From: Marsupella aquatica
Taxonomy: Eukaryota; Plantae; Marchantiophyta
Direction: 5' to 3'
Length of the DNA stretch: 64,000 nt
Assembly: GCA_973895155.1 (NCBI GenBank)
Contig: OZ316891.1
Span: 28,525,145-28,589,144, forward strand
Shown here: positions 9,821-54,000 of the stretch, piece after piece
How the letters are laid out: each line of letters opens with the position of its first letter
Numbering within the stretch: the stretch's first letter is position 1
Notes under the pieces: generated by a model
What the model was told of the DNA's origin: nothing
What the model saw: the letters and a program-made list of their open reading frames with translations, nothing else
Database searches by the model: none
Position numbers and translations under genes: made by a program

Positions 9821-11578
9821 AACCTCATGCTGTCGCATAATTGCACCGGTCATGGCTTACCTATCATCCAGCGCAACAATTGAAATGGACATGATGTTGT
9901 TGATTCCGTCAAACCTCGTTTGTGGGTAGTGATCTATGGTCACCAGTTTGTTCATAATTGACTTCATATGGGCTTCTGTTACAGTCGTCACTCTCTCTAA
10001 GTGCACAATCGCTAGACGAAGTACTCTCTCTCTAAGTGCACACTCCCTGGAAGAAGCACTTTCAGATGTGCACTTAAATCAGAGCTGCTCCTTCAAGAGC
10101 TACAGGTTACCCATAGGAACCAAATTTCATTAGAAACTAAGAATTTTTTCCTGAAATTGTGGAGTAGATTGGCACTTTAGAGGAAAAAAATGAGGGAAGG
10201 TGCAAAAAGGGAGAAGTATTGGACACTTCCCCCTTATATATGGGTAGCTGTGGTTTAATTAAGCAAGTTGTGGATAGATTCTACGTATTGAAATCATTTT
10301 ATAAAGCTTGCACAAAAACAGTCACCACCTTTGTGGAGAGGTCTAGTGCAAGGGCATTTTAAGATTTGTCCTCTACTTGCTACGAGATTCCGGGATTAAT
10401 GATACAAGGCGCTGTAATCGTATTACTTGTTTTATTACTCGTATTACTGATTGTTTAATTTATCCTCATTCATCAAAAGGATTGGGAAACGAGGAGAGAA
10501 TCGATTGTATAGATCCGCTAAGCACGTAGCCAGTAAATCTTTGAATAATTCTGAAAAAAGTTATGACAGCTAAACTAACTAATCCCCTCACAAGGGCTAC
10601 GGCTCTTTCCTTTCAGAACCTGCTGATGAGTAGTCGTGGAGAGCCCTACCTATAGGCTCTGGGGAAAAAACTGCGCAGCAACAACAACCGGGCCTACGGC
10701 CCTCCCGTATTTTAAACGGCAGATCGAGTGCCCGCCCATGACCATCATCGGGTGGTATGGATAACTGACCGGGTTATTGCAGTGTATACGACCTCGGCGG
10801 TGTCGAGCACCGGGATACAAAGAAAGGCCCGTGGGGCGGGGAATAAAAGAAATAGAAATTGGCTTTAGCCGGGGGGGGGGACCTTAGAGAGAGGCGCTAC
10901 GTGCTCGGGAAGAGTTAAAAATATCTTTTTTGACACTCGACCAACAGAAACTTCTAGGAATGGCTGATAAAGAAGAAGCACTACGTGCCTCCGTTTACGT
11001 GGGTAGCTTCGGCTTATGCAACATTGGGGGCTTGAAGTGGTTTATCCCCTAGTCTCGAATTTTTCAGAAATTCTAAGTCCTAATTCGTCGGGGAACGCCA
11101 TTAAGATAACCGCCCGCCGCAGGGGGACCGCGACTGAATTGACTCCTATTTTTAAGTTTCGAATAGAGAAATATATAGATATATCTATAACAAAGGCCCC
11201 CCGGCATCAGTTCTTACGCGAGCTACCCGTCAGACAAAGAAAGGGCAAATAAATATAAGTAAAAATCTCTATTTTCCATTTCCCCCCCCCCCCCGCTACG
11301 GCATTTTGGAATATGTCAATGATGTGTCAAATCCTATAGACCGCAAAAAGTTTTACTAGGATTTATTCAGTTTCTTCAACAAAACACGCGTAGTGCAATC
11401 CGCTGGAGTTCTATACGAACCTGAATCGGTTCGCGACTCTTTCACCGTTCCCGGGCCGTCGGGCCCGGCGGTCCCTCCACCTTCATCCAGTTGAAAGAGG
11501 CGCGGACTAAAATCGACGCTTGTATAAGGCTCCATAATTTATTTATTTTTTTTTCCGATTCGTTCCTTCGCTGCTTAT

Positions 11579-11651
11579 TCTCTAGTAGCTCAGCGGTTAG
11601 AGCAAATGGCTGTTAACTATTGGGTCGTTGGTTCGAATCCAACCTAGAGAG
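11579..11651 (+). tRNA. trnN: tRNA-Asn(GUU), mitochondrial type
   Basis: Cloverleaf with acceptor tctctag/ctagaga, anticodon GTT, T loop ggttcgaatcc. Confidence 0.95.
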
Positions 11652-14600
11652 ACCGAATCAGTGGGAAAGGGTGAGACCAAATAAATGTTATGTAGGACGT
11701 TCTACACCTTATCAATTAAAGTATTTCACGCAATTTTTTTTATTTCCCTGTTAACTCACTCGAAACCGACCGTATTTAAATCCGATTATCCGACTCGGCG
11801 GGGATTGCCAGGCTGCCGGTCAACGACCTTTGCCGAACCTCTTTTGGCAAAGGCCAGACGCATAACCTATGGCCCATTGAGCACGGGGGGGGCATGGGTG
11901 GCACCACCTAGTGCGCAGGGAGCGTATTCGGGTATCGTGCGCGGTAAAGCCATTTCTGGCCGGAGGACCTAAGACAAAGAAGTGTGCCCTTTGGCCCTAA
12001 GAGGTTTGATTCGGCGATTCGCCATCGCTAGTTCGGTCGTTTTTTGGCCGATTACGTTTCGGACCCTACGGGCCTGTGTTTTACGTAATGTGATGTCGTA
12101 TGGGGCCACGGGCCTTGTGCTTTTTCTTTACCTGATAGATACACTGCTCTAAATATAGGGAGAAAAAAAAAACTGCATAATCTTTTGAAATGCATAATCT
12201 TTTGGTTTCAAAAGCTGCTGAATCGGAAGATGATGCAGCGTATACGGCGAAGGCGGGGTTTTTAAAGTTGATGGATGGGGAACAAGGTCCGGAGGAGGGT
12301 TTTAGGCATTTTGATGGAAAATAAGAACCCCTTTCTTTGTTCGGTCCTTATTGCAGAACCCAGATAAGTGCGCCAGCCTTGGTGCATCGTGGACTTGTAC
12401 TTTTTCTCGCGCAGGACCTATACCGGTTATCGGTCGTCCAGGCGCGAGCGATATCAGGCGTCGGGAGGGACAGACGCCTCTGTCCTCGCCGCCCCGAGGC
12501 GCTGTTCGAGCTTCTTACTCGGGCAGATTGGCCCGGTACGGTTCGTAAGAGACGACAGCCCCCCGGCCCCTGTCTGACAGTCCAACCTCTCGGGGGCCCT
12601 GTCAGCCGCCAGTCCCCGGCCCTTCGGACAGACCCACAAAGTTTCTCGTGTTCTTTGGTCAGTCGTTCCTCCCCGCTCCTTTGTTGTCTATTTAGCACTC
12701 TCCGCCGCGGCGGTTGTATGTGAGCCTTTCGTCATCCATCTTACAAGGCGGCCAGGGATATCCATTGCGGCAGCTTTTTGGCCTAAGCGCTAAGTAGGAA
12801 AATAAACCTTTGATAGATTATGGAATGGCAAAAGTTATCCAAGCAGATATCCCGTGTGATGAGGCTCACATCTGCTTTTATATAGCCCTTAGTGTCAGGT
12901 CGATTAATATAAGATTAAGTTTTTCCGCCGCCTACTCGCACGCATCTTTCAGGCCGTATTATGTGCTTCTTTGGTCGACTGACTTTTTGCCCTTTCCTTA
13001 ATCGTTTCTCTATTTGTGGCTGACGGGTACCTAGTACTTAGCCTCATATATTGATACATTTTTATGAACAGAGCAACCCTTTTTCCCGTTCTGTCGCCCC
13101 CGAGTGAAAGTGGGGGGGGGGCCGAAAGGCGCACAGTGGCGCCCTCTTTTCCCGGCAAGCGCGACGGGGGAGCCACCGATAATTTTCGAAGAGCGAGTAT
13201 ATTCGCTTTGTTCCACCATCGCAATTTGAAAGATTGGAACATTACATATATATATATATATACGTGGCGATTCATATAGAATAGTTGCTTACGGGCCAAA
13301 TAGATATATATATATTTCTTTATTTCATTTATTTATTTATCTCTCTCTATATGGTCCAGGAACGAACTTCGATCCCCTTTCTTTTATACGTAAGATGAAA
13401 TTACTATTATTAGACAAGATATTAAGGATAGTAATAATTATTAGGTTCAGAATGAGAACTGATACTACTAAATACTGAGAATTTTTGAATGACTAAGTTT
13501 TTTCAAGTCGGGAAACTCGACTTCAACTTTTTGTAAATAAAACTAAGAAGGGACCTTGACATCCTAGTAAATAATCCCGTTGGAAACCTTTGTAATTACG
13601 ATGGGATAGACTCATTCCTACTACATGATCCGATAGAGGGAACCTGGGATACGCTATGTCCATACCTGAAGCCGAGACAATAAGCTTCCTCGGATTTCCA
13701 TGACTCCAACACTCCGCGAACTGAACACGAATGCCTTTGAGCCAACAAGTCTAGTTGATTGCGGAATTGCTTGTCCTTATATCTGCCTTCGAAGTTTCTC
13801 GAGGAGACATGGCAGTTCCAAAGCAGATAATAGAAGGTGAGCGTCTCATGAATAGGATCAAGGGTCTACCTTCCTCGTCGCCCATTCATCGCTCATGTCG
13901 CCGGGTCATACATAATCCCGTACCCGGGACCTCTCGCCACGGAGCTAAGTGATTTGCTCCGGGCTATCGAGTCCTTCGAAGCGGAACGTATAATACAATT
14001 TACCGAGCTTACTTGCACGGCGGCCCGCCCCTGACATAGCTGCTCAGCGAAGGCCCCCGGCCTCTGAAGAGCTGGTAGACGACGGAGAAGGGGGCATATG
14101 TTGGTTGGAATCCACACGGATAAGGGGCCGGTGAAACCAAAGAAGTCTACTTGCTTCGGAGTCTCAAAAGTCGGATTACCATAGAAATAACAAACAACTA
14201 TTAGGAGCCCTTTCATTACAAACCGGATCATTCCCCTAAGCAGGGCCGGCTCCTTTAATTCTGTTAAGCGCGCTGTTAGGGAAAAAGGGGGGCGTTGGTA
14301 GTGGGTTCCGACGCCGGATCATAGATGTGGATCCACCGTCGTGCTACTTTGGTAATGAATCCGTCCGACGGAGAGAAGGTGACAACTGTAGAACAACGCC
14401 ATGCTCCAGCAGGGGCTCTTGGATTCGGAAAGGGAGTCTGTTGGACTTACTATGAAGGAATTCAAGGGCCCCAAAGCCGACCGGGGACTGTCAGTCGGAC
14501 ATAAGAGAGAACAAAAATTGACGAAAAAACAAGAAAGGGATGCCGCGAGCTGAAATGGCTGAGAAGGAAGGCACATAGTACTTCAATCTACAAGCCCGAA

Positions 14601-15182
14601 CACCCTCCCCGCGCACTCCGTGCCTATGGGTCCTCCGCCGCCGGACGGAGGAGGAGGTGCGTAAGCACTTTCAGACGGGATACTTCTTTACGGAAGAAAG
14701 ACCTGATGAAGGGCACGAGACAACTATAGGGGGAGGTGCTACGCACGGACCGAAGGGCCGAAGGTTTCGGATTTTACTTCTTCATCGGGTCCCTTATCGC
14801 CTCCTATTACCTACCATATTTCTCTATGAGGATTCATCGGATTCAGCCTTTATCCATGAGGGTTCCTCTTCCCTATTCATCATGGAATTACATAGTTAAT
14901 GGCATAACCGGAAAATTCCTCGTATATTCCAATGATACTTTAATACTGCGATTACAACGATACTTGGAAATGCAATTACATAATAAATCGCATTTTCAAG
15001 CAAATCGATAAGGCAGACAATGACCGACTCAGACTCTTACGGACTTGAGCGCACCTATGGCTGAAGAACTAATACACGTCCGTGAGGCCAAAAATATCTT
15101 TCTTTTTTCTTAGCCTTTCCCATTACCAATGCTGATCAATCAAATTCTAAGCATTCATATAATATTCTTTGGGCGAGCCAAG

Positions 15183-15256
15183 CAAGGTGTAGCGCAATCT
15201 GGTAGCGCGTCTGCCTTGGGCGCAGAAAGTTACAGGTTCAAATCCTGTCACCTTGA
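15183..15256 (+). tRNA. trnP: tRNA-Pro(UGG)
   Basis: Acceptor caaggtg/caccttg, anticodon TGG, directly upstream of sdh3. Confidence 0.95.
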
Positions 15257-15281
15257 ATCAAAATCGGAGTCAACTAAAAAG

Positions 15282-15695
15282 ATGAAAATAAATCGACCGT
15301 TATCACCCCACCTTACCATCTATAAGCCGCAGCTTACTTCGACGTTTTCTATTTTCCATAGAATATCCGGGGCGTTCTTGGCCACTATGGTTTTGTTCAG
15401 TATTTTTTTTTTCAAAATAGGTGATCTCAGCCTCACGTTTTTTGATTTTTACCAGTATTTCTTCCTCCTCACTCTTTATTTGAATTGGGTCATTATAAGC
15501 TTAGTCAATTTCACTTTATTAGCGTTGTGCTATCATATGAGTAATGGAGTTCGTCATTTATTGTGGGATTCGGGTCTTTTCCTAGAATTATCCAAAGTGT
15601 ATACTTCCGGAATTATTATGTTACTCTGTGCAGCTTTCTTAGCTTTATTGAATATTATCCGACAGCACTGGTCAAATGGCCAAATACCTTATTGA
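15282..15695 (+). CDS. sdh3: Succinate dehydrogenase subunit 3 (NUMT copy)
   Basis: MKINRPLSPHLTIYKPQLTSTFSIFHRISG...YHMSNGVRHLLWD. The ORF-track extension to 15129 only overlaps trnP. Confidence 0.95.
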   Translation: MKINRPLSPHLTIYKPQLTSTFSIFHRISGAFLATMVLFSIFFFKIGDLSLTFFDFYQYFFLLTLYLNWVIISLVNFTLLALCYHMSNGVRHLLWDSGLFLELSKVYTSGIIMLLCAAFLALLNIIRQHWSNGQIPY

Positions 15696-16844
15696 ATTAG
15701 ACAAAGAAAAAGCAAATATTCTGAAGGAATCACTATCAGCACTGGCCGGAATGGCCGAATACCACATTAGCCGGCTCATTCTCGTTACCTATTCCCAGTA
15801 TTCCGTTTTATATTTTGAAACTTATGCTATTTTAAGAACGGTCTCAATCTTAGCCACCATTATAACTCTCTTGATATACTTCGGACTTGGAGTCAGTCAC
15901 AAACTGCAAACCCATAATTTCGTATAATATATCCGTCAAACAAATTCTACAGTGTTCCAGTTCATTTTGTTAAAAATTCTATGCTTCGAGCGAACGTTTT
16001 GCCCTTCTGGGGTTTTATAATTTTTGACCTTTTCTCAACTTATTTATGCTATTTTCATATTTCCTTCCAGTAATGAACTCGTAAGTGTTTTAGCAAAAAT
16101 AGTAACTGTGTTTATAATAATATACTATCGATTAAGACGCGATTTTTTGGTGTTTCAAATCACCAAGAATTCACAAAAAATAATAACGTGGGATTTTATA
16201 TTGAGTCAGCTCCGAGGTGCTATTGAGCAACAGTCGGCCGGCTACAAGGGTAATATTGAAGAGTTTATCGGGTCTTTTTTTGTAAATAAACTATCGAACA
16301 AATCCTCTTAAATCAGTGACCTTCCCGTTTTTTACAAGGCCTTCTCATGCTTCAGTTGCGAGAGAAGCACCCGGTGATGGTGGATCTGCCGACGCTGGGG
16401 CCGTCGGTAAATCCGCGGCGGGACAATGAGCAACTGATTGGGTCTATTAAAATTCTGGGGCGTCTATTGCTGTCATTGTAGCCGGGGTTTTTCGGTTATA
16501 AAATATATGTAAATGAGCGTGGAAACGCTCGAAAAGACCAAGCCCTGGAGCAGAAAGATGAAGAGCTCGCCTAAAATGATAAGAAGTATGAGCTGAATAA
16601 GGAAAAGTATGAGCTGGATCAGGAAAAGTTCGAGTACGAAAAGTTTAAAAAAGGGGAGGCGGCCATGTAAGATCTTAACGCCCCTGAAAAGACTCCATAG
16701 GATCCACAATCGGTATTTATTCAAAAGCATGGAGGGCTTTCAGCTAGGGGAGCTCGTAACAAAAGCCTTTTTGAGCCTACGTTTAATATCTTCGATTTGT
16801 TTTTTTTAACTTTCCCAAGAGCAACGCTACGCGCCTGGCTTTGT

Positions 16845-17211
16845 TGTTCTAGCCAAAACTAATCCTATTTTAGCTATTACCCTGTCTATTACTATGTTCT
16901 CATACGCAGGAATACCCCCATTAGCTGGATTTCGTAGCAAATTCTATTTGTTTTTTGCCGCTTTAGGCTGTGGGGCCTACCTACCAGCCCTAATAGGAGT
17001 AGTTACTAGCGTTATCAGTTGTTTTTATTATATATGCTTTGTGAAAATAATGTATTTTGATACACCCGAAACATGGATTTTATATAAACCCATGGATCGT
17101 GAAAAATCCTTACTACTAGCAATCATTGTCTTTCTCATCACTTTTTTCTTTCTATATCCCTCTCCCCTGTTTTTAGTTACTCATCAAATGGCACTTTGCC
17201 TATGTTTATGA
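16845..17211 (+). pseudogene. nad2: 3' fragment of nad2
   Basis: LAKTNPILAITLSITMFSYAGIPPLAGF...FYY...MYFDTP...HQMAL; no 5' part. Confidence 0.85.
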
Positions 17212-17389
17212 GCCTAATGATTTCTCGGGGGGGCGCAGCACGAAAAAAAATATTTGTTTTCGCGGCTGATTATCTATCATATATAGAGAAATCCCCCCTC
17301 AAGGCTTTAGCTCTCCGCAGGCCCGTAGTGCATAAAAGGCTTTCTGATTTCGTGGCCCTCTGGTCTTACATCCAAGAGGCCACCCTTTA

Positions 17390-17740
17390 CCTTTTGCTCG
17401 ATTTTGCTCGATTTGGTTCAAATCTCGATGCTGTGACTCAGTATTTATTGAATAATCGTGAGGCTAGGTCAACTAAGATACTTGAACAACCACGATATAG
17501 CCGTCCAATTCCTATTGAAAAACAAATCGTGGTTATTTATGCAGCTGTCAAAGGTTACTTAGACCAAATACCCGTCGTTCTCACAACACACTATGAGCAA
17601 GAGCTATTGAAATGAAATCTATCGACCCAGGTCTACTTTCTGCTATTGTACAACAAAAAAACATCACTGAGCAAATTAGTAGTCAACTGGCTACCTCTCG
17701 CCATAAATGTACGCGGAGCTTCTTAGCGATTCATCAATCA
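17390..17740 (+). pseudogene. atp1: Degenerate 3' fragment of atp1
   Basis: FARFGSNLDAVTQYLLN...EQPRYS..PIEKQIVVIYAAVKGYLDQIP, with a stop/frameshift near 17615. Confidence 0.8.
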
Positions 17741-17980
17741 TAAGAAAAGGAGAGGGGCAAAGCAGCTATTTGCTTCACCCCTCCCCCCTCCGGGTACCGG
17801 GTAGCCGTGGCTTATAAGAAAGGTAGAGCATGGGCAATTTGTCGTTGGGAGTTTGTAAAGTCTCTCATTTTTTAGTTATAATCGTAACCGCGCCCCCTAC
17901 GCAACGACGCTTCCTTTCCGGAATTCGGGATGGGAGAAACAAGCGCTTAGCGCCTCGGGTTTCCGCATTCGTTGTCAAAT

Positions 17981-18053
17981 CAGGAGAAAAGGGATTCGAA
18001 CCCTTAACCTTTGGTTTTGGAGACCATTGTTCTACCATTGGAACTATTCTCCT
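17981..18053 (-). tRNA. trnW: tRNA-Trp(CCA)
   Basis: Minus-strand cloverleaf aggagaa...ttctcct, anticodon CCA. Confidence 0.95.
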
Positions 18054-18076
18054 TCAAAAAAAGTGGTTCTTGGTTC

Positions 18077-19956
18077 ATGGAATTTGCACCTATTTTTGTC
18101 TATTTAGTAATCAGTTTGCTACTTTCCTTGATCTTAATTGGTGTTTCTTTTCTATTCGCTTCTTCTTCCAGTTTGGCTTACCCAGAGAAATTGTCAGCTT
18201 ACGAATGTGGTTTTGAGGGCGGCCGTTAGGTTACCTACAGTCATAAACGTGTGTGGCCGAACTTCACACGAGGGGTATATGGCTTACTGGAAGCTGGTAA
18301 CGGCGGAGGAACCGAAGCATGCCATAAAAGCATCACTGAGGGCCGGAGGCACGATAGGGGAGAGGGCCAACCAGAGCGATACACTCGACCGGTCCGTCCG
18401 AAGGATACTTATTTGGCGGGGTCAATCAATAGGCCGGAAATGGCTTGATGATTTCAGCACGCGAAGACCCGTCGGCGGGCCCAAAGGGCACGAGACTTGC
18501 CGTGCGAGGTGCTACGGACTTTGGGCCAGAGAGTTCGGCGGGTCGAAGGCGCTTTGGCCCTACGGGCCACCTCGCTTTCCGCCCAAGACCGTGATGCGAG
18601 CCCCCCGGCACTAACGAGATGAGGTGCTGTTATGGCGAATCGGAGTCGTTTTCGGGAAAGCATACCCTGCCTGCTGGAGCTAACTCCGTGCTGCCTTGCG
18701 CACGCGGGAACGCACGCGAAAAGATGCAGCAGTCACGCCCTCTGCCTGCAGATGATCAGAATCGGCCAGGCCACAGGTCGGAGTGGAAATATGGGGGCGG
18801 ATTACCCAACACATTGGGGACAGACGACTAAACGACATCTCGAAGTGCTACAGCCTGTAGGCGATACCGGCGAGGTCCAGCCAGATGAGCGCCGGCCAAG
18901 GCGGGTTGGAAGTCAGAAGGCCCGCAGTACCCGGCTAAACCTTCGCTTCGAGAAGGGGAAGGCACTGGAAACACCAGTAATCGGGAAGGGGCCTAGGTAT
19001 CTGCTTGGTCTAAGCGGATTTCACTCTACACAGCTTATCAAAGCAACTCTAACGGATCTCAGATTGGCTGTGACCGACACGGTACGGTATGCGGTTTGCT
19101 CCCTGTTAGGCCCTTGGATCTCTAGCTATGAGAGAAAGCGAACAGGCGGACAAGGCGGCTTGAAAGTCCTCTAGCTTCTCCTCTCCAGCAAGCTATAGGG
19201 TACGGCGCGGCACAAAATAGTTTTAATTCACTTGGTCCACCTGCCCTGGCTCCCCCGGCGAAACTTCCCAAGGATGCTCAAACTCTGCAAGGCGATAAGT
19301 ATAAACTCTGGAATCGCTGAAAAAGCAGAGCAACCCGACAAATACGAGATCATTCTATGCCCTGTCTTGCGTGGCTCCGGCTGTTCAGCACTGTAAAAAA
19401 GGCTCCTCGCCCGCTCTCTGCGCATCGACGGAGAGCACGGAATGGAATCATGCTTTTGATAGGATGAAGAAACATATTCTGTTTATTCGGAGATACCACC
19501 CGCCGGAGGCCCATAAGGAAGACCTAGAGGAAATCATTGGGAAGACCTAGGGTAGATCATTGGTTTTCGGAAACCGAAAAGATATATATAAATATAAATA
19601 TGCTGCGCCCGTAGTGAAGTAGTGAAAGAGGGACCAAAGTAAGTAGAGTTAGTGAGCCGTGTAATGGGCAACTATTTCGCACGGTTCGGAGGGCACTTCA
19701 GTAGGCCCTACATGCATGGGCTGAAGTCTTGACCCCTATTCCTTTTGATGATGCCAGAAGTCGTTTCGATATACGATTTTATCTTGTTTCTATTTTATTT
19801 ATTATATCCGATTCGGAAGTCACCTTTTCATTTCCTTGGGCAGTTTCTCTTAACAAGATTGGTTCGTTTGGATTCTGGTCTATGATGGTATTTTTACTTA
19901 TTTTGACGATTGGATTTGTATATGAATGGAAAAAGGGCGCTTTAGATTGGGAGTAA
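18077..19956 (+). CDS. nad3: NADH dehydrogenase subunit 3, two exons (18077-18216, 19740-19956)
   Basis: [13 protein letters not shown]...[11 protein letters not shown]|[16 protein letters not shown]...[10 protein letters not shown]; 357 nt spliced; needs C-to-U editing ([13 protein letters not shown]). Confidence 0.95.
18217..19739 (+). ncRNA. Group II intron nad3i140
   Basis: Starts gggcg after nt 140 of nad3; domain V gagccgtgtaatgggcaactatttcgcacggttc; ends ctat. Confidence 0.9.
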
Positions 19957-20344
19957 CTCTTCATTCGCGAAAGCGAATGGAGTGGAAAGAAAAAATATAA
20001 GCCCGTAGGGCTGAAGCTCTCATCGCTCTCTTTCTCCCTCTCCGGACACTTTTTTGGTCCAAAGGACACGAAACTTGCCGGGTATCTATCGTGTGCGGAT
20101 TCCAGCCAAAAAGGAATTTCGGCTCTTCCGTGCCCCCGACCCGCGAAGCGGTTTAATTAATCCTCCGGATTGGAAGTATATAAACCGCTTCACGGGACTC
20201 TATGTCCCGCACAGTGAATGCTCTCTCCCGTAGTACTATGTGCCTAAAATAAGAGATCTTTCTTGCTATGGGAAAACCACGAACACCATTGCAAAAACAA
20301 ATCACTCGTTGTGTCTGCTCAATAGTTGATTATTGGACACATTG

Positions 20345-20417
20345 GGGTAATTAGCTCAGTTGGTAGAGTGCCTTGTTTACACCGAGAGCGTCAGCGGTTC
20401 AAGTCCGTTATTATCCA
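20345..20417 (+). tRNA. trnV: tRNA-Val(UAC)
   Basis: Cloverleaf, anticodon TAC. Confidence 0.93.
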
Positions 20418-23017: not shown

Positions 23018-23019
23018 TA

Positions 23020-43072: not shown

Positions 43073-43155
43073 TGGGAGAGGTAGGATTCGAACCTACGTA
43101 GAAAACCTTCAGCAGATTTACAGTCTGCCGCTTTTAACCACTCGGCCACTCTCCC
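43073..43155 (-). tRNA. trnY: tRNA-Tyr(GUA)
   Basis: gggagagtggccgagtgg..., anticodon GTA, long variable arm. Confidence 0.95.
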
Positions 43156-43301
43156 CATGATAAGTAAGCTTCTATTTTCCGGCGGTGCAATGGGACTCTG
43201 ACGAAAAATAGGTCAATCCACGCGTGTACCGTTGTTCCTATGGACTAATCGAACAAGTAAAAGGATGTACCGTTGATATCTATTATTCATTGCACACCTT
43301 A

Positions 43302-43375
43302 CGCATCCTACAGGATTTGAACCTGTGACCTTCAACTTAGAAGGTTGTTGCTCTATCCAACTGAGCTAAGAATGC
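43302..43375 (-). tRNA. trnR: tRNA-Arg(UCU)
   Basis: gcattcttagctcagttggatagagc..., anticodon TCT. Confidence 0.93.
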
Positions 43376-45982
43376 GGCACATTACTAACCATTTCGCAAA
43401 AAAAAAGTGAATTCCAGAGAAGAAAGAAGCATCGCGAATGGAGGCCGAAGGGAAGGAAAGGGTCCGATGAAATAAAACAAACAAAAAATATTTTTTTTTG
43501 CTTTGCATTTTCCTGGTTTTGATCAGGTTCGACACATGACGAAATATAATGCATTTTGTATTAAAAACTATTCTGGAGAAAATTCTAATTCGTGTTTTTT
43601 GTATATCGATTCGCTCCAGTTTCACATAGTTTACATGTTATTGGTTCGAGAAGACGGCGGCCCGGGGCGTGTCGCGGAGTGCGGCGGCATAACGCATAGC
43701 ATGGAGGACTCTATCGTATAGAATACACGAAATTGGAGTTTCGCGTACAGAGAAATCATTGGAAATAGCATATACATATAGAGAAACTGAAGTTTCGTAT
43801 ATATATACATATAACTTCAAATAGTATATACAACATATATAGAAATTTCAGTTTCGTTTATATAATCGCTTTTCACATTCGTTGTCGAGGTGCACATCGA
43901 AAGAATTGATGTAACTAAGCTGCCGAAGTTACTATCTAGTTGCAGCAGTCGGAGGCGTTTATGTGCTAATCCGCGTTTATTATACCTAATGTCCCTCAAC
44001 CCAAAATTTTGTTTGAAAGTTACTTATTTCTTCGGAGTGCCCGAGTTAGCCCGCGTATCGTACACTTTATATGTTTTTCTACCTCCCGTACGCGGAACGG
44101 CAGCGCGTACTGGACTTTTCCGAGCCTTTCATTTTTTCATGGATGGATAGTCTGCGCAGTTTGCAGTTGATACGTTCTAGGCTTAATTCTAGCCTTTGCG
44201 CTTCCTTCGAGGTAATGACAAAGCAATTTGTGGAATACTTCGCAGGGGTTATGCGACAGCTCACATCGGCAATCATCCAGCATCCGCGAATGTCTACCGG
44301 ATTTAAGCGTTGTATTATTCGATGGAGGACTCGACCAGGGGCAACCCATTAAGTACGAACAAGGTGGTCGATGCAGCCAATTATATCGAGTCCATAAAAT
44401 CGTCCAATAAAGAACCGCGGCAAATTAAATATTTTCGCAACAGCGTCGGCACAAACGCATATGAGATGCTATTTGGGGAAAAAAATGATATGGAACGGGA
44501 GACCGAGATTGGCTCTTGGAATCACATCCAATGGTTGGAACAGCTTGCAAAATCTAACAACCTTACCCACTTTATCGCCCTCAATCGTTTTTTGTACTTC
44601 TATCGAAACAGAATGGTTCCATGTTATTTCATTAATAGGATATTTACTTTTGTTTCTATTTTTTTATCCCATTCTAGTCTCAATAACTTTTCAAACTTTA
44701 CTGGCAAAATGATTTAAAATTCTTTTCACCAATTTTTCCTCTGGTCAAGTGTCTCGATTTGATCGACCCTAAACATAAAAAGTGGAAGTGTGCACGCTGC
44801 CGTGAAAAAGACCTACCTCGGCATATATGCCGCCCTTAACCTTTCGATTAATCGCCGGGAGGCCGTTACAAAAGGCTAAGAGGGGCAGGGGGATGAACGA
44901 TAGCCTTGAAATTTTAAGGTGTTGTGCTGCTCAAGGGTGGTGAAAAAATTCGAGAGAAGAAGCTATCAAATCTTACGTACCCCACCGTCAAATTGTTACA
45001 ACAGTGTACCGAAGTACTTGACGGTCTGTAAGATGATAAAATCTGCTTCGTCTGTATTTCCGCCCCGCGGCAATGGAGGACTTGGTGGATTTGTCCAATA
45101 GTCGAGTAATCGTGTTTAGTATTCGCAACTATCTCCTTCGGCGTGGTCACGCACCTAAGCTAATTCGCCGCGGTGTTGATGAAGCTCACCGTAATTCCAG
45201 TCTTTGTACCATAGCTTGAGAGCGACTTTTTATTTTTTCCCAAAGGCCCAGTCGACTCCGGCGGCTCATTCACTGGCGGAAATTGTTTCCCTTATGGCGG
45301 ATAGGTTTATGGTGACAACGTAAAAAGGTTGTGTTTCCGACCTGTGAATAAATATGTGGGTCACCACGTCGGGTTGTAATACTACGTTCGAGTACGAACC
45401 GTCTTTCGAATAGAAAAAGGTCCAAATCAACACCACCTTTTATGTTAGACGTGTGAATATTGGAAAAGAAATCCTTGTATAGTGTATGCAAGTACAGGGA
45501 AGTAAAAGTAATTGTATTTTACGTTCTATGAACGTGTTTCGGCGAATTAATTAAAATGCACCAGAGGTGCCTTTACAATCATATTGCTTGAAACCATTGA
45601 TTTCATTCAATAATCATATAATAAAATCCCAAAGGTATTGCAGAAACCGATGTCCATCGACGCGGGCGACCTAAGAAGTAGATAAATTACTTTGGTCGAC
45701 CCTTGAATAAGATGATAAAAAAACAGCATTTTCTATTCCATGAAAAAACCATCTTTTTTGAATCGAAAAAGCGGCGTAAGTTTATAAAAAGTAAAAAAAT
45801 ACTTATCTTTTTCGAATTTCCGTGAAATAAGCGTTTCAGTAAAAGCGCAAAGGGCTTTACGAACGAACTTCGGCTTCTAGAACCGAGGTCCCAGGGCTTA
45901 AACGGCTGGAACGTCGCGCAGCGCAGGTTTGCTTTAGCTTTCCCGCTTCGCGTTTCTGTTTGACAAAAGCTAGAAAATTACT

Positions 45983-46669
45983 ATGTATGTCCCGTTATTA
46001 CGTCCTTTTCTTTTCATGTGCTGCTCTTTCCGTTACGCGCAAATTCTCATTGGATTTTGCTGGTTTCTAACAGCGATAGCTATTTATTTAAGTATTTGGG
46101 TAGCACCATCCGATTTTCAACAGGGTGAAAATTATCGCATTATTTATGTGCATGTTCCTGCAGCTTGGATGAGTTTACTTATTTATATTGCAATGGCTAT
46201 TAGCAGTGTGTTATTCTTATTAACAAAACATCCCCTTTTTCAGTTATTTTCCAAAACCGGTGCCAAAATAGGTGCTTTGTTTACGTTGTTCACCCCAGTC
46301 ACCGGGGGGTTCTGGGGAAAACCTATGTGGGGGACCTTTTGGGTATGGGATGCTCGTTTAACCTCTGTATTAATCCTGTTTTTTATTTACCTGGGTGCAC
46401 TGCGTTTTCAAGAGTTTTCTGCGGATGTTGCTTCTATTTTTATATGTATAGGGCCAATCAATATACCAATAATTAAGTTTCCTGTCAACCGGTGGAATAC
46501 ATTGCATCAACCTTCAAGCATTAGCCAATTTGGTACTTCAATACATATTTCTATGCCCATTCCAATCTTTTTAATCTTTGCTAGCTCTTTCTTTTTAACT
46601 GGGATTTTGTTTATTTTGGAGACACGTCAAATAATTCTATCTTTTTATTTACGGCGAAAAAGCCAATGA
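45983..46669 (+). CDS. ccmC: Cytochrome c maturation protein CcmC
   Basis: APSDFQQGENYRIIYVHVPAAW, WGKPMWGTFWVWDARLTS; unedited codons (FTPVTGG, IKFPVNRWNTLHQ). Confidence 0.96.
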   Translation: MYVPLLRPFLFMCCSFRYAQILIGFCWFLTAIAIYLSIWVAPSDFQQGENYRIIYVHVPAAWMSLLIYIAMAISSVLFLLTKHPLFQLFSKTGAKIGALFTLFTPVTGGFWGKPMWGTFWVWDARLTSVLILFFIYLGALRFQEFSADVASIFICIGPINIPIIKFPVNRWNTLHQPSSISQFGTSIHISMPIPIFLIFASSFFLTGILFILETRQIILSFYLRRKSQ

Positions 46670-47394
46670 CTTTCCTGGAGCCTTGTCAATAATTTTTATT
46701 TCGTCAGTTTCTTCTTCTCTCTCTACGTCGGACAGTACCTGGTCCCGTCTGACAGCGCCCCGCCCTGCGGCGGGCCTTTTGTCATCGGGAGCCAAAAGCC
46801 TATGGGAAGGAAAACACGCGCAAGGCACGTAGTGCGGTGAGCCAACAATTTGGTTGAAACATTTAGAGGGGGCTATTGGTTCGAGGGTTAAGAACCAGCA
46901 GGCCGTAGCAGCTCAAGGGTAAGTTTCTTTCATTCAAAAACCTCGTCAAATAATTCTTTTTATTCGTTATATGGACCCCGTCAATGCTGGCTTAGCCCTT
47001 AGGTATGAAAAAAAAAATTATTTATTTTTTATACCCAAGATCTCGTATTGATGGGTAAATACTGCCCATGATGTATGACGTCAATCATGAAGAACACAAA
47101 GTTTCCATGATCCGTGAAAAAGCAACTGATAGAGCTGCTCGCCAATTCTGCTTGCTGATTCGCAGAAAAAAAAGGCAAGGCGCGTATGGCTCTATGCTGG
47201 GCTCCCTATCCCCTCCATAGGGTTCATAGAAGCTATTCCGTGAGAGTTTTTCGGCTAGCTTGCGACGTGTGTAATCCTCCGTTATTGAGGTTGGTAGGAC
47301 TCATAATCGGCATGCCAAATGCCGTAACGAACCCAGGGTTGTACGGCAAAAAAATCTTTTTTTGTTGCCAATTATAAGCAAAGTTTATAATGTT

Positions 47395-48821
47395 ATGTCA
47401 CCGGAATTGGGCCATTATTTTTTAGTACTGAGTATTTCCGTTGCGTTAACTAACAAGCTGCGTCCCGTGGCTGTTCCACTCTATTTTTTTTGTTCACTAT
47501 GTCTTTCTTTGGTATTTTGTTCTGTTATATTCCTTCCGACTTTTCCAATTACAACGCATTCACCAACCCAAATGCTAATGCGCCTTTGTTTTATAGAATA
47601 TCAGGAAGCTGGTCTAATCATGAGGGTAGTCTGTTATTATGGTGTTGGACCCCAAGTTTTTACGGATTCCTTTTTTGCTACCCGGCCCGACCCAGCAATG
47701 TATCGGAACAAGCAAAGGGCGGAAAGAAAAAAAATATTTATTTTTTGTTTTCGTCCGAAGGTCTCGACCAGCGGGCAATTTCGCTCATGGATGAACAGCA
47801 AATTTATAAAGGCATTGCTTTATTTTTTCCTATTTTTCTATTAGCAAGTTCCAATCCTTTCGTTCGAATTTCATTTGTTTGTACTAAATCACTTGGGGAA
47901 TTAAATCCTGTTTTACAAGATCCCATATTAGCTATACATCCTCCTCGCATTTATGCGGGATACGTCGCAAGTGCTATTGGCTTTTGCTTATGTTTATCTG
48001 GAATAATAAACGGGCCGCGTTTGAATAATATATTTTTCTTTTTTGGTCCTTTTCCGGTAAAGCCAAGTAAGGTCCGAAGGCCGGAAATGGCTCGTGGATT
48101 TCCACACACGAGAACCGCTCTATGTGTGCCTTTTGGGTCATTGGCCCATAGAGAGCGGGCTGAAAGTGTTGTTCGTAAAACAAATACTATGTATCTTCAT
48201 TTTGGTGGGACCCGTAGCGCGAATACGGTAGTGTGGAAACAAATTCAAATTTGGATCTTGACATGTTGGTGCTTTTTAACGGTAGGCATATTGCTAGGAA
48301 GTTGGTGGGCTTATCATGAATTAGGCTGGGGCGGCTGGTGGTTCTGGGATCCCGTAGAAAATGCTTCTTTCATGCCTTGGGTATTAGCTACGGCTTGTAT
48401 TCATTCAGTCATTTTACCTAAATTGAATGATTGGACTTTGTTTCTCAATATGGTTACTTTTTTATGTCGTATTTCAGGAACTTTTTTTGTGCGTTCCGGA
48501 TTGCTAGCTTCCGTTCATAGTTTTGCTACAGATTCGACACGAGGAATCTTTTTATGGTGTTTTTTCTCTATAATTACCAGCATATCTTTTACTTCTCTTT
48601 TCAGAATGAAGCAGCAATCAGGTACCCAGCTAGTTGGGGCATTATCTGTTCCATCATCAAACCGAGATCCTACGGTCCCAAAACCCGTGAACCAGATCTT
48701 GTGGCATTCACGAAGCACTGCGCACTCGTATCGATCCGATCGTTTAGCAAAGCTCATGGTGGAGGGCACAGAAGGTCACGACGAAGTCATTGTATACGTA
48801 GCAAGTAGAAAGCCTAAATAG
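47395..48821 (+). pseudogene. ccmFN: ccmFN with a single-base frameshift in a T run at ~47,484-47,491
   Basis: [13 protein letters not shown]... shifts into the frame with [57 protein letters not shown]. Confidence 0.88.
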
Positions 48822-49008
48822 AAAAAGCTACCTATTATAAGTGACTTCAGCCCGATTCAGCACTTTGCGTTGTATCGGGCCAGAAGGAGCCTACTTCCGG
48901 ACCTAAAAAATATTTTTTTCTGTACGCATTCTCCATGGGAGCGAACGCGAGGGAATAGACCGTATTCTCTGATCCGAGGGAGCGAAATAATCAAAACGAA
49001 TAGAGCAG

Positions 49009-50505
49009 ATGGTCCAACTACAGAATTTTTTCTTTTTTCCTATTTTTTTGGTTGTGCTTTGTGGCACAGCAGCACCCATACTATTTCAATGGTTGGTAAG
49101 TAGAGATGTTTCCACAGGTGTTCCTTTTTCTAATGGTACTATAATACCTATTTCTACATCTTTATTACCTGTTTCAGTTATCATACATTCCAGGGGGTTC
49201 ATGCGCTCTCTGGACGAAGCAAAAAGGATAGTTTCGATAAGAGCAAGACCCCTTCTGTTACCCAACATAATTGAGAGAAGCTCACCTGAGAAAATCCAAT
49301 ATATTTCCTCTTCTCCGGATGAAAAAGCCTTGTCAATTCTTTCCTTTTTTCGTCCATTTTTTCCTCCCCTTCTTGTCATACAGTCCCCGGCGGCCCTTGT
49401 CGGACAGTATTTTGGTTTTGTGGTGTCCGACAAAACAAAGTCCGGGACCCTGGCTGACAGTGTACGGGCCCTGCGTCGGGCCTTGTTGTTGTTCTTTCAT
49501 TTTACTATTATCAAATTCATGGGGGACTTTTCATATTTGGAATCTTTTTGCGGTGTGCTTTGTTTCTTCCTCTTCCGTACGTTCTTTTTATCGTCTCATA
49601 ATAGGCGCGATAGGTTAGCGAGGCACAAATTTCCTTTCTTTGTTTTTCACAGGCAGAAAAGACGCGAGCTTATTATATCGTCACTGAGAATAAATAACTT
49701 GAATTGGAGTAGATGTTTTCTTGTTCGCGCCTTACCGAGTAGACCGATGACTGTTGGTTATTACTTTCGAAAAGCTCCCGTTAATATGAAGCTTTCACAT
49801 GGAGGAGTTTGCATCTTCATCATGGGTGTAATTCTGCCCAACGCGAAAAAGATACAATCTACAGGGAAAACACCTTTGGGTTCCGAACTACATATAGGGA
49901 AGGTTCGTAGCACTTTGCGAGGTATTGATCAATTACATGGGCCCACTTTTCACTCCATTTGTGGTAATTCAATCATTTATAAACCGTCCCTGACAAACCC
50001 ATTAATGTCCCTGACAAACCCATTAATGTTTGAGCATGACGAATCACGTCCTGCCCTGTTGCAATCCCGGCCTACCGAAGGTGCAAAGCTCTCGACCGAC
50101 GGTAGAGGCTTTAGCTCTCCACCAACGGAAGGAGGAAACTTCTGTGGTTCGCCGAAGGGACGAAGGCCAGAAATGGCTGGTAGATTTACGCACACTTCTT
50201 TACGAAAGAAGGGCTTTACAGTTCTCGAACATAACAGTTTTTCACATTGGTTGACTATGTTCCCAGAAAAAAGATTCTATTTTTCGAATCAAGAAACGAG
50301 CACTACCAAAGTGGCTATACATACCAATCTCTTTACGGATCTATATGCTTTGATCGGAACTGGAAGTTTTGAAACAGGCTGGTATACGACAGTAATTAAG
50401 CTCCCTTTTATTTTCCGTATTTGGATAGGTTTCATTATGGCTTCGTTGGGAGGCTCGCTCAGTCTTTTCCGTAAGCTCACCTTCTACAGATTGGATTGGA
50501 ATTAA
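49009..50505 (+). CDS. ccmFC: Cytochrome c maturation protein CcmFC (single ORF)
   Basis: MVQLQNFFFF...GTAAPILFQW, SHGGVCIF, RGIDQLHGPTFHSICGN, MFPEKRFY, TTKVAIHTNLFTDLY; includes an in-frame 21-nt duplication (SLTNPLM x2). Confidence 0.92.
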   Translation: MVQLQNFFFFPIFLVVLCGTAAPILFQWLVSRDVSTGVPFSNGTIIPISTSLLPVSVIIHSRGFMRSLDEAKRIVSIRARPLLLPNIIERSSPEKIQYISSSPDEKALSILSFFRPFFPPLLVIQSPAALVGQYFGFVVSDKTKSGTLADSVRALRRALLLFFHFTIIKFMGDFSYLESFCGVLCFFLFRTFFLSSHNRRDRLARHKFPFFVFHRQKRRELIISSLRINNLNWSRCFLVRALPSRPMTVGYYFRKAPVNMKLSHGGVCIFIMGVILPNAKKIQSTGKTPLGSELHIGKVRSTLRGIDQLHGPTFHSICGNSIIYKPSLTNPLMSLTNPLMFEHDESRPALLQSRPTEGAKLSTDGRGFSSPPTEGGNFCGSPKGRRPEMAGRFTHTSLRKKGFTVLEHNSFSHWLTMFPEKRFYFSNQETSTTKVAIHTNLFTDLYALIGTGSFETGWYTTVIKLPFIFRIWIGFIMASLGGSLSLFRKLTFYRLDWN

Positions 50506-50769
50506 AAATTTATTGTGGTTATTTCTGTTTCTTAATACTTTGGATTTAGCTATGTTGAGGAAACCAAAAAAATGTATCTGAGTAAAGGAATCTACGAATA
50601 ACCTGGTATTGCGAGAATGATTTTATTATAGATTTTGTTTTACCTAGGACCCCGGTATATATATTTACCACATGCGTAGAAGGAGCCTGCTGCTCGGAAT
50701 AAAATTATAGATACAGCGCTACGAGATCTCAACGAATCCGGAATTAATGATACAAGGCGATTTACTGAT

Positions 50770-51022
50770 TTACTGATCACTCTGTCATCCCGGTGCGGAT
50801 GTACGCTGAGTAGAGCGCACAGGTACGACTCATCGTCTTAGTGAACAGGTTGCGTTTGATGTTTGAACGTAAAATCAAGTTCTTGTAAATGAGCAAAACC
50901 TGGTGCTCTTATTTCACAACGATAAGGACGATTGGTTCTTCCATCCCACCGACTAGCAACACACCAGAATAATCTACTTTAGGCGCTTCTACTGCTGTAT
51001 AGGTAGAAGAAGCTGGTACGGC
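50770..51022 (-). pseudogene. nad7: Isolated 3' piece of the nad7 pseudogene plus the start of intron nad7i1113
   Basis: Minus strand [14 protein letters not shown]...[21 protein letters not shown], followed by intron-like sequence similar to the 5' end of rps14i114; linker DNA on both sides. Confidence 0.82.
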
Positions 51023-54000
51023 CTTCTGTCTCAAGTTTAGAACGTCAAATTAAAGATTCCATGGATTGTTTTATTACTAACGATTGTAATAAGAATTAAA
51101 GAATAGGAGTTCGATCCATATATTGGATCGAGTAGATATTGTTTAGATCTCGTAGCAAATAAGTAAAATCTGAACTTGTACGAAATCTAGTGGGGTTTGT
51201 GTTCAAATGTGAAGAAAGGAGAAAGAGAATCAAAACAAGTAGAGGTGAAAAATAGTTCAAGGAGTAAAGTGTGTTCCATCCTTAAACAACCAGAATTTGT
51301 TCCCGTTAAGAGTTTGTGAGACCTAAACGATCATTCTAGTACACTTTGAGATGTTGAAGCCAACATTTCTCAAGTTGGGAAAAGTTTTCTGACATTTTCA
51401 AGTCTTGAGTAGTTTAAATACTTAACTCAGTTATTGCAATGTTATATCCATAGTGCAAGAACAAAAGCTAAATTAATACACTAGGAATGGTCTAATCATA
51501 GATATACTATGCCATACCCAGATCGCATCCCGCACGTAACCCCTAGCGGCCGATGAATTCACTATTTTCCACCACTGTCTTCATTGAGGTCCTCCATTGT
51601 TCTGGGGTGAAATCTGCACGGCCTTGGAAAACCTGCGTGGACAGTAAACATTTCAATCATTCACTGTAATATGCATGAAAGATGCATGAAGTAAATAGAG
51701 TATGGAGATTCCTACTGCGATGCTGTAATTCGATGATCACATCACCAATCAGACGTTGATCTTGCATTAAAGCATGCTTCGTTTAGGGTCGGAGGTAAAC
51801 GGGGATGGCTGGCCAGCCTTGGGTTCAGATGATGATTAGTTTCAACGTTCTCGCCTGGGTTGCATTGTATGGTGGGATGGAAGTTGCCCGGCCGGGCTTG
51901 GAAAGGAATACATGGAGGGGTTGGTGTCGAGGTTGGGGAAACATCTGTCCATTCAGTCGAGTACAACACCTGTGAACAGATTTACATTGGAAACAATTAA
52001 TCATACGTGCATACTATATAATTTAACAAGAAATAGTATGCATTCGATCTATACATCTGAGAATTGTCCAAAGAAATAGGTACGTATTAACTTCCTGTAC
52101 TCAACAAGCGATCGCGCGAACTTTCAATGAACAACAGTCGACCTCCTCAGCCGTCGTTGTAAGGGCCCATCGTGGACTTTGGTACCAAAGTCCATCATCT
52201 GTTGTGTGCTTCTTGCGGAGGTGGAGAATTGAACATTGGAAATGGGAGATGCAGTGCCTTTGTCACCGTTTTGTAACCGAACGAGGAATGATTGTTTCCG
52301 CGGAAGAAAAACAATCCATCTAAAGTGGTGGGACGATTGACGTGTGCCTTATCTCCATGAAATCCGTAAACGGTATTTTGCCACATAGGATGCCTTCCTC
52401 AAAATCAGGCAAGCCATTACTTCTGCAAGTTTTGGCTTTGGATTCTGGAGGCGTGGCATGCGGTTGTCTCCTCCGAAGTAGTGGACTGCCCTTCACATAA
52501 ATCCAAAGTGCGTGGACTTATTGAGTGGGGGAAATTAAATCACACTAGTACATTTTGAGGCATTTTACCGATTGTATTTCCATCGGACGCCTTCAGGAAA
52601 TCCGACGTGGAAATCTCGCCTGTCCGATAACAAAAGAATCGCATTTTGCGATGTAATTTGCATTGAAAAATGATAATCGGAAACCAATCGGAACTACCGA
52701 TACTAAAACATTCGGTAGTTCCATCCTCTAAACTGTTGGGAAACACTATCTCCGATGCCCGTTTAATCAGATGTCTGTTCCGCGCATTTTCTGTTAACGG
52801 AGGCGTTCGATTCTATTCCGATAGTCTGGACATGGAAATGTCCAATTGTTTTAACATCGCAAATGTCCAATTTGTTTTGGAACGGAAATTGCGATTATAG
52901 TGGAATCGGACTTTGCGATACTTTGGGGATGGAAAAGTACGATGAGTGTGGCATCGGATATGGATCGGTATCTATCGGAAACTATTTGGCAAGCTTGATT
53001 GGGCCGATTTTAAATGGGGGGCTAATTGGGGGTTTAATTGGGGTGCAATTTAATTCTTTAACTGAATTTTTATTTAGGGTTTAGAGAGGTCATTTAAACA
53101 CGATTTTGGACCGACCGAGAAGTGTGTCGGAGTTCTCGTTTAGCCCAATCTCGTTTTTTTCTAAGGCAATGCAATGACCGATAAAACTGGAAAAAACTCT
53201 CCGAAACGCCACTTTCCTCCATTGCATCACCGCGGGAATGCAGGGAGCGATACGTGCATCGGGTTTTACATTCCGTCAGTGAAAAAGTCCGAACTGCGAG
53301 TAACTTGGTCCGAACCGCGTAATCCAGGAACGACCATGCACTAACCCAGGTAAAGGGGAAACTTAACCATGGTTAAGGGGAAATTAACCATGGTTTAGAG
53401 CGTCTCTTATATAAAGAGGAGCGGGCTGCCCATAAAACGTTTGCTTTCGCCAGAGCAAATATCTCCTGACTGAGAGCGAATACCAAACTCCCATCAAGTC
53501 TTACATTCCTCCCAAGCGATTCGACTCTTTCTACCAAAAACCCGATAAATTTATCGGAACAGCCATTCATGTTCAAGTTCTCCATGTAAGACTAACTAGT
53601 CATTTAGTGTAAAATGTCCAGATCCGAGCGGACTGCAATAAATTTATCGCATTCTGCATTCCTCTGTTGCAATCATTTGATCCAGTGTTTAGAGAGGTGT
53701 TTCCTTCATTCCGATAAATTTATCGGAGTCTTCATTCCTTTCATGGAAAGAGGAGTAATTGAGAATCTGATAAATTTATCGGAGTTGTCATTTTTGTGAA
53801 AGATTGAATTCAGGGGTTAGGTGCTTGAGGAAGTCATATTTTCAATTCGAATGCGGAGTGCGATAAACTTATCGCATCCTCCTGTGAGAATCATTTTCCT
53901 TTGTTTTGTTTGGAGACTCATCTTCATCTCTGATGTCGCAGTGTTGTCGGGTTTAGGAGGCACAACGGAAGGTCGATTGCACTCCGTGGACAACAGGTAT

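Follow-up and report, generated by a model that had tools for sequence, protein, structure and literature searches.

Junction fillers of a mosaic mitochondrial insertion in a liverwort assembly match the tips of other junction ends

Results

Fillers are copied from the ends of other pieces

A mosaic NUMT consisting of about 11 mitochondrial fragments of 0.3-12 kb each was characterized at 10453-51075 in a 64,000-nucleotide stretch of Marsupella aquatica DNA (the window). It is young, and the fillers at its junctions hold bases copied from DNA ends of the same event. We consider it probable that the fillers were made in a single event, by iterative Pol theta-type end joining among all the loose ends; about 24 ends would have taken part, and the enzyme is named from the scar pattern alone. 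Broken mtDNA would enter the nucleus and gather at a chromosome break, where a 3' end would anneal over a few bases to whichever end lay close, copy about 8-26 nt inward and release. The extended ends would themselves become templates, with orientation flipping and composite words, such as a 26-mer, spreading, until in the last step the ends would be joined. This reading calls for neither a common template nor a new enzyme.

A young copy of native mtDNA

The NUMT fragments lie at approximately 10453-21215, 21222-21667, 21710-25345, 25413-25687, 25738-29209, 29235-30414, 30438-34179, 34266-35532, 35638-38739, 38771-50719 and 50775-51075. The left limit and several inner limits are putative, and filler-free joints could be hidden. 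The NUMT carries 11 tRNAs, group II introns and Pfam matches to sdh3, nad5, rpl5, rpl16, rps7, rps8 and a ccm-type gene. Each piece shows 0-10 differences from public high-depth native mtDNA contigs, which stop at the junctions; the insertion is thus made of several non-collinear fragments near-identical to native mtDNA, the mark of a complex NUMT. It is flanked by a P450 exon on the left and a DUF7869 ORF on the right, and the host DNA is likely a liverwort chromosome.

Thirty differences separate the window from mtDNA: 22 are C>T or G>A, 17 of these at CG, a context that holds 24% of C positions. The CpG-centred C>T changes are spread over at least four fragments. This bias indicates a real, young nuclear copy; the NUMT lies in nuclear DNA and has mutated as such. 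A chimera of mtDNA with nuclear DNA, formed on amplification or in assembly, would be in keeping with the finding that no listed contig crosses any filler, but an insertion private to one individual also explains the missing cover. In-vitro joining would not yield CpG-centred changes, which were seen against the native mtDNA of two organisms, and we regard a chimera as very unlikely.

The two right-hand fillers, at 50720-50774 and 51076-51145, were crossed by no contig from four runs (57% of X2 being read), and depth was 0 over 50720-50759 and 51080-51119 in all four. Support for the joints therefore comes only from the assembly; rare paths are lost from contigs, and missing cover is not read as absence. 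Searches for the mitogenome returned 0 matches to the repeat motif in metagenomes, only short bacterial ccmF-type matches in plasmids, and none to rps7 in viral contigs. A scan for rpl5 gave 14 loci, two of them at 96% protein identity and only 1.1-1.8 kb long.

Fillers are distinct from native repeats

The initial annotation had described 13 linkers built from shared words. All ten of its example words were found on the strands it gave and no more than 2 nt from the places it gave, and the second has a third copy at 29192. The 13 intervals had 45 10-mers in common, more than any of 300 dinucleotide shuffles (mean 2.8, maximum 15). When GC-matched random NUMT intervals served as controls, sharing passed the 99th percentile at k=7 and at k=8, where it was 0.553 as compared with 0.523, but not at k=9 to 14; such controls probably fall at times on longer native repeats, e.g. 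25500/36322.

Two of the 13 linkers are native mtDNA and three more contain long native stretches. One X5 contig record (14600-15938) crosses 14915-15010 without gaps, another (19942-21215) spans 20440-20500 and 21165-21215, and 50575-50719 and 51030-51075 are matched by native contigs without a single difference. AATGCAATTACA also occurs at 14969, mid-fragment in native DNA, and this copy is probably due to chance. One filler, at 29210-29234, had been missed. The refined set comprises 12 fillers of 6-105 nt, 634 nt in total.

Since several of the intervals first mapped are native, the linkers might be a dispersed repeat family of the mitogenome. Native contigs, however, break off exactly at each of the four fillers tested in full and run on into different sequence, and the intervals proven native share 0 nt with the fillers at k=10 in four of five stretches (12/96 in the fifth). 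A native repeat family is hardly credible on these results.

Four tips supply most of the shared words

Clear donors were identified among 4 of 15 ends, a likely chromosome break included, and these four supply most of the words. The first tip (29189-29209, minus strand) is a native fragment end, with native contigs stopping at 29209; it recurs as copies of 21 nt at 10394, 17 nt at 50743 and 8 nt at 34250. The second (51063-51075, plus strand) is the native end of a nad7 pseudogene piece, recognized by nad7 homology and by stops, and loose contig ends lie at 51075 in X1, X3 and X5. Together with the first 3 nt of the adjoining filler J51 it was recopied at 35622-35637 and 10427-10439. Another native end (25666-25687, plus strand) was copied into fillers J21b and J35, with a slip between two ACAATT units.

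The remaining donor (51146-51158, plus strand) comprises the first bases of the right nuclear flank, and was copied into J0, J35 and J50. Its definition rests on a single 101-nt X2 contig (depth 63) in a repeat-rich flank, exact over 51146-51221 and with other letters before. Those upstream letters, a candidate for the empty site, are absent from the window with up to 3 mismatches allowed, and may reflect a target deletion or a paralogous repeat.

The initial annotation had proposed that the breaks were patched from one common short template or by an enzyme with an inherent preference for certain sequences. Words do recur in up to five fillers, and no native source within the window accounts for part of the 26-mer or for about 43% of filler bases. 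However, the words that are longest and most often reused coincide with contig-defined tips of unrelated sequences, namely the nad7 pseudogene, a spacer and the nuclear flank. The main words are ordinary sequence from the extremities of other fragments and of the right nuclear flank, and the 26-mer itself is a composite of native tip and filler. From a common RNA or DNA template, no enrichment in the 10 nt nearest the tips would be predicted, and the independence from local ends that it entails fails. We therefore judge a common template or sequence-preferring enzyme highly improbable; the undescribed end-capping activity suggested earlier likewise finds no support, cross-end copying being already described for plant Pol theta in the available part of one report (PMC10923293).

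Structure of individual fillers

Both ends are contig-fixed in 4 of the 12 fillers: J25a (25346-25412), J29 (29210-29234), J50 (50720-50774) and J51 (51076-51145). The contig comparison took in two stretches of the NUMT; J30, J34, J35 and J38 lie outside them, and J0 within one. J50 is almost wholly composed of shared words, 52 of its 55 nt being covered by 8-mers of other fillers or tips, and the nuclear tip recurs in reverse over 12 nt at 50718-50729, of which 2 nt are native overlap. J29, where native sequence stops at 29209 and resumes at 29235, has a 12-mer in common with J50. J51, the right nuclear junction, contains an internal inverted repeat (51111-51118/51124-51131). J25a has few long matches to other junctions, with 9/67 nt covered at k=8.

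The left nuclear junction, J0 (10382-10452, putative limits), holds the 26-mer and copies of the tips at 51146, 29209, 50719 and 51075; a template switch via GCGCTG connects the 29209 copy with the 50719 tip. The word CCTCTACTTG at 10370 matches the right flank but could also belong to an imperfect inverted repeat of the left flank; it was not counted. J35 (35533-35637, right limit putative) follows an rpl16 truncated mid-gene, with homology stopping at 35532. It opens with an 11-nt fold-back of its own end at 35532 and holds the 26-mer in reverse, along with copies of the tips at 51075, 25687 and 51146.

J21b (21668-21709), placed by the nad5 frame and by tRNA homology from 21710, lies between a nad5 piece and a 5'-truncated tRNA and carries a copy of the 25687 tip. 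J25b (25688-25737), whose left end is contig-fixed and whose right end is that of the initial annotation, contains a reverse copy of 51142-51151, which spans J51 and the nuclear tip. J21a (21216-21221, about 6 nt) has its left end at an X5 contig end at 21215, and its right end was placed by the nad5 frame and protein sequence; with its neighbours it reads CTCGTAG, the same as the right nuclear tip. J30 (30415-30437), at the rps8 3' end, is a probable filler with two 9-10 nt matches to other fillers; homology to bryophyte-like contigs stops at 30438, also near the natural gene end. J34 (34180-34265), a possible filler with two 10-mers in common with others, could instead be the native rpl16-rpl5 spacer. 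J38 (38740-38770), also a possible filler, has 10-mers common to J0, J35 and the end of J51.

Filler-tip matches exceed chance

Matches of the fillers to the last 25 nt of other junction ends were counted in an event-level test that used only the 10 read-defined ends. At minimum lengths of 8, 9 and 10 nt there were 13, 8 and 4 matches, respectively, as compared with 3.2, 0.8 and 0.2 expected (3, 0 and 1 of 1000 controls); 10-11 of the 13 remained after removal of any one main donor. Overall, 9-mers from the last 25 nt of other ends accounted for 107 of 634 filler bases (null mean 11.4, maximum 61; 0/1000), and 10-mers common to another filler covered 216/634 nt (12 in 500 shuffles, maximum 92). 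The four contig-fixed fillers alone gave a smaller signal, 49/217 nt (2/1000 at k=8 with 25-nt zones), which was lost at k=10 with 100-nt zones (182/1000). At k=8, 272/634 nt had no assigned source, including most of J25a and J51.

The matches are concentrated at the tips. In successive 10-nt bins from the tip, 8-mer matches numbered 43, 12, 2, 3, 4, 2, 2, 4, 6, 4, 1 and 1; the interior rate is 3.5 per bin, and background level was reached beyond 20 nt. No own-end preference was evident at k=8 (10 nt from own ends, 172 nt from others), each filler having 0-2 own and 13-15 other ends. Palindromes were not enriched (48 against 56 for 4-mers, 17 against 15 for 6-mers). When letters of loose ends past the native ends were compared with fillers by eye, no match longer than 7 nt was seen. 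Two words that may resemble sequencing-adapter words both map to contig-defined ends. When hidden fillers were sought with sliding 8-mer windows, J0, J35 and J50 came out top (40/40), but native windows reached 37, so that the scan can neither reveal nor exclude further junctions.

Some copies span an end plus that end's own filler, which indicates that fillers copied fillers. Thus the 51063-51075 tip recurs at 35622-35637 together with 3 nt of filler, the stretch at 35549-35558 takes in parts of both the 50719 tip and J50, and 25689-25698 spans J51 and the nuclear tip. Clear cases of iterated priming or fold-back occur in J0, J35 and J50, but many tile overlaps are 0-2 nt. The patchwork filler originally proposed, with repeated priming and jumping, both orientations and reuse across 40 kb, is supported.

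The same end-to-end copying might be due to MMBIR, fork template switching or Pol lambda/NHEJ fill-in. MMBIR-type switching leaves scars similar to those of Pol theta, strand invasion also permits words in both orientations relative to the donor strand, and the available part of a rice survey assigns 27% of 828 organelle insertions to FoSTeS/MMBIR (PMC12129026). Against this, the copies measure 8-26 nt and start within 10-20 nt of tips, which fits end priming better than invasion of a duplex interior, and fold-back with short patchwork is the Pol theta pattern in the portion of the work available (PMC4912351). We consider these routes unlikely, and prefer Pol theta-type end joining.

Discussion

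Bases of the likely nuclear break end are borne by the inner junctions J50, J35 and J25b, which points to assembly at the break. Given the nuclear tip in these inner joints, joining of the pieces likely took place with the chromosome break present and not beforehand. A multi-end repair hub, in which about 24 ends including the chromosome break were kept together while a few tips were copied and recopied, is a tentative extension of this reading, and we would put it at less than even. Were it true, the fillers would form an event-specific barcode with a readable joining order. If hubs were general, filler words would reveal insertions and rearrangement junctions of the same cell and time, even across chromosomes, and mosaic NUMTs would be shown to be built at the break rather than pre-assembled.

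The comparison of fillers with tips requires only a long-read assembly and an organelle genome, and is thus applicable to thousands of complex NUMTs and NUPTs, to biolistic arrays, and to chromothripsis junctions at present classed as non-templated. The NUMT fillers do not point to a new enzyme. Among literature titles and abstract openings, we found no report of cross-junction filler sharing in a NUMT, and older T-DNA filler papers (Gorbunova and Levy 1997, Windels 2003, Kleinboelting 2015, van Kregten 2016) may describe similar cases.

In the parts available of two plant studies, complex NUMTs, NUPTs and NUMINs likewise combine numerous organelle fragments of mixed orientation at a single site, and a single event, either preceding or coinciding with insertion, is held to have formed them. 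Fillers have been described from insertion sites in rice, and whether concatenation precedes the break or occurs at it is left open (PMC12129026, PMC6215612). Junctions there are scored as blunt, microhomology or filler and, unlike here, the filler is not traced to other junctions in those parts (PMC12129026, PMC6215612). Ultra-complex rearrangements also show many junctions with long insertions lacking a unique genomic source, and Pol theta has been suggested (PMC8052244). They concern the human germline, without organelle DNA; their insertions are described as non-templated and rich in simple repeats, and the portion available reports no test of them against other junction tips, unlike here (PMC8052244).

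According to the accessible part of a further study, Pol theta extends in cis, in trans and without template, and recopies its own products, to which identical-orientation tracts are attributed (PMC4912351). The resulting patchwork of fold-back, trans-copied and unassignable bases resembles that of the NUMT fillers, although the enzyme was mammalian, studied in vitro and in mouse ES cells, and the median insertion in vitro was 7 bp as compared with 6-105 nt here (PMC4912351). Closest is the Arabidopsis T-DNA/CRISPR system, as far as the available part describes it, in which junction fillers are short templated insertions from another molecule's end, as in the NUMT; they trace to either the opposing end of the break or the other T-DNA end, and the other molecule's end is proposed to act as a temporary template through rounds of extension and release (PMC10923293). 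That system has four engineered ends and completed genetics, whereas the NUMT is natural, has about 24 ends and is known from sequence alone; it differs further in cross-copying among many junctions, in copies of extended ends and in the dominance of a few donors (PMC10923293).

Organization of the insertion and its flanks

Mitochondrial genes span ~10.45 to 51.08 kb of the window, in a part that also contains 11 tRNAs and group II intron domains. ORFs in this mosaic insertion (NUMT) gave Pfam matches to sdh3, nad5, a nad2-type antiporter domain, rpl5, rpl16, rps7, rps8 and three cytochrome c biogenesis genes. The nad7 piece (50857–51075) has in-frame stops, as do native contigs (0 differences); liverworts typically carry a nad7 pseudogene, which makes a liverwort host likely. 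Two copies of an rps7 segment are present (25500–25687 and 36180–36370). The X1 contig at this repeat has ~2× mitochondrial depth (1131), and the duplication is therefore likely a feature of the mitogenome itself.

By Pfam, the NUMT is flanked by a P450 exon on the left and a DUF7869 ORF on the right. Exons of the cytochrome P450 gene lie at 6400–8750 (minus strand; Pfam match for 6880–7239), ~1.6 kb left of the insertion, which is on the 5' side of the gene. The left flank also carries three tandem copies of a 40-nt unit (9699–9820). The right block (52500–64000) is transposon-like, with the DUF7869 ORF at 60587–62233 (minus strand, E 1e-48) and many copies of a 16-nt palindrome around GATAAATTTATC. 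A weak N6_N4_Mtase match (59819–60229; E 0.003, below the cut-off) directly after an ORF with a DIPYG motif (59098–59874) possibly marks a transposon-borne DNA methyltransferase.

Junctions defined by native contigs

Contigs from four of 20 sequencing runs (X1 and X2, organism A; X3 and X5, organism B) were compared with the window over 9900–29899, among the matches listed, and 50400–51599; the high-depth contigs are the native mitogenome. The initial annotation had placed linkers at 13 intervals. Native contigs cross 14915–15010, 20440–20500, 21165–21215, 50575–50719 and 51030–51075, and these stretches are therefore not linkers. Native sequence ends at 21215, 25345, 25687, 29209, 50719 and 51075, and restarts at 25413, 29235 and 50775. 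A single X2 contig (depth 63) matches 51146–51221 exactly but has different letters upstream, so the nuclear tip is likely at 51146. Metagenome contigs with mitochondrial genes add ends at 21710, 30438 and 35532, that at 30438 being less secure, given how close rps8 comes to its natural end there.

The NUMT thus mapped consists of about 11 fragments, and the corrected set comprises 12 fillers of 6–105 nt (631–634 nt in total; 35% GC versus 45% for the NUMT). Both ends are contig-fixed in four of the 12, and the sequence of these fillers is absent from native mtDNA. Limits come from the initial annotation or are inferred for fillers J0 (10382–10452, both ends), J25b (25688–25737, right), J35 (35533–35637, right) and J30 (30415–30437, left), and for the whole of J34 (34180–34265) and J38 (38740–38770). 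Rough depth in the first bin of X5 (34 versus ~120–140 for mtDNA) suggests that native DNA begins nearer 10450 than 10521.

Filler words match the tips of other fragments

All 10 example words said to be shared between linkers were found at their positions. The 13 original intervals share 45 10-mers, against a mean of 2.8 and a maximum of 15 in 300 dinucleotide shuffles; compared with GC-matched NUMT intervals, the excess was above the 99th percentile only at k=7 and 8.

The 21-mer at 10394 corresponds, in reverse complement, to 29189–29209, the final 21 bases of one fragment, and 17 nt of it are present again at 50743. GGATTGTTTTATT (51063–51075) forms the nad7 tip, GCTACGAGAT reverse-complements the outermost bases of the right nuclear flank, and CATACAATT is 13 nt away from the 25687 tip. 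In a test with 15 ends that had been placed independently, 107 of 634 filler nt were covered by 9-mers from the terminal 25 nt at other junctions, compared with 11.4 (maximum 61; 0/1000) for GC-matched interior zones. With the 10 read-defined ends only, there were 13, 8 and 4 whole matches of at least 8, 9 and 10 nt (null 3.2, 0.8 and 0.2; reached in 3, 0 and 1 of 1000), and 10–11 of the 13 stayed when any one main donor was removed. Matches per 10-nt bin from the tip numbered 43, 12 and then 1–6, the interior rate being 3.5. Nearly all came from four of the 15 ends. In the four fully read-defined fillers, 25-nt zones at k=8 covered 49 of 217 nt (2/1000); with 100-nt zones at k=10 the signal was lost (182/1000).

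The shared words had been attributed to one common template, or a new enzyme, patching all breaks. As the main words trace to tips at other junctions, we regard this as very improbable.

An exact 14-nt inverted match joins the nad5 fragment end (21227–21240) and the right nuclear flank (51154–51167). Both partners appear native, the former by the nad5 frame and the latter by the X2 contig; the match may be chance, or may mean that the first fragment captured was one that could pair with the break.

Fillers copied from fillers

The fillers also contain copies of extended ends. Positions 35622–35637 repeat the nad7 tip together with the 3 nt of filler that adjoin it, 35549–35558 bridges the 50719 tip and J50 (50720–50774), and 25689–25698 bridges J51 (51076–51145, at the right nuclear junction) and the nuclear tip. 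The 26-mer at 10427–10452 consists of the nad7 tip, 3 nt of J51 and 13 nt found only in J0 and J35. J0 and J50 have identical words in identical order; in J0 the 29209 copy passes via GCGCTG into a 50719-tip copy. The first 11 nt of J35 are a fold-back of its own end; the right part of this filler may instead be native DNA that happens to have 13 nt in common with the nad7 tip. Filler-to-filler 10-mers cover 216 of 634 nt (12 in 500 shuffles). At k=8, 362 of 634 nt were assigned (null 151); the remainder could come from shorter tiles, from untemplated addition or from copying of DNA that the event removed.

Nuclear residence and age

Of the window-versus-mtDNA differences, the 40 best supported were considered (218 more ranked below them), and the 30 of these shown by X1 high-depth contigs were used. 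The NUMT carries a nuclear mutation pattern: in 22 of the 30 the window shows C>T or G>A, spread over at least four fragments, and 17 fall at CG, where 24% of C positions lie. A CG-centred C>T excess is the footprint of methylated nuclear DNA. Thirty differences in ~19 kb set a lower bound near 0.15%, indicating a young insertion. No contig in any of the four runs covers J50 or J51, whose joints rest on the assembly; perhaps only the assembled plant carries the insertion, or filtering removed it from the contigs.

Organisms A and B share low-depth joints that connect mitochondrial positions (at least 13374–24221, 17467–18294 and 23618–19503). These joints are probably junctions of other, older NUMTs of both, and are useful as controls for event-specific words.

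Proposed mechanism and comparison with known systems

Many broken mtDNA pieces would meet a chromosome break. Their 3' ends would prime on whichever end was nearby, copy a short tract and release; extended ends would turn into templates, and the ends would finally be joined. The nuclear tip is reverse-copied as 12 nt in J50, and J35 and J25b hold shorter stretches of it; the inner joints were therefore likely made in the presence of the break, as judged from one contig. The enzyme is likely Pol theta, by analogy. We conclude that the pattern is real, and the mechanism probably of a known kind in an unusually rich form.

Among the titles and abstract openings searched, we found no report of cross-junction filler sharing in a natural organelle insertion. 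Templated insertions in Arabidopsis have their sources at the opposing CRISPR end or at the second T-DNA end; according to the authors, the donor is often a separate molecule lying nearby (PMC10923293). Pol theta alternates between untemplated extension and extension in cis or in trans, and it copies its own products again (PMC4912351); both Pol theta and NHEJ are relevant to plastid-to-nucleus transfer in tobacco (PMC12181080). In rice, most complex insertions arose as single events, and fillers >50 bp were present in 88 of 828 (PMC12129026); inner junctions of mosaic insertions have been scored for microhomology (PMC6215612). The NUMT fillers behave like TMEJ filler and are templated by ends, and by analogy POLQ may have acted here.
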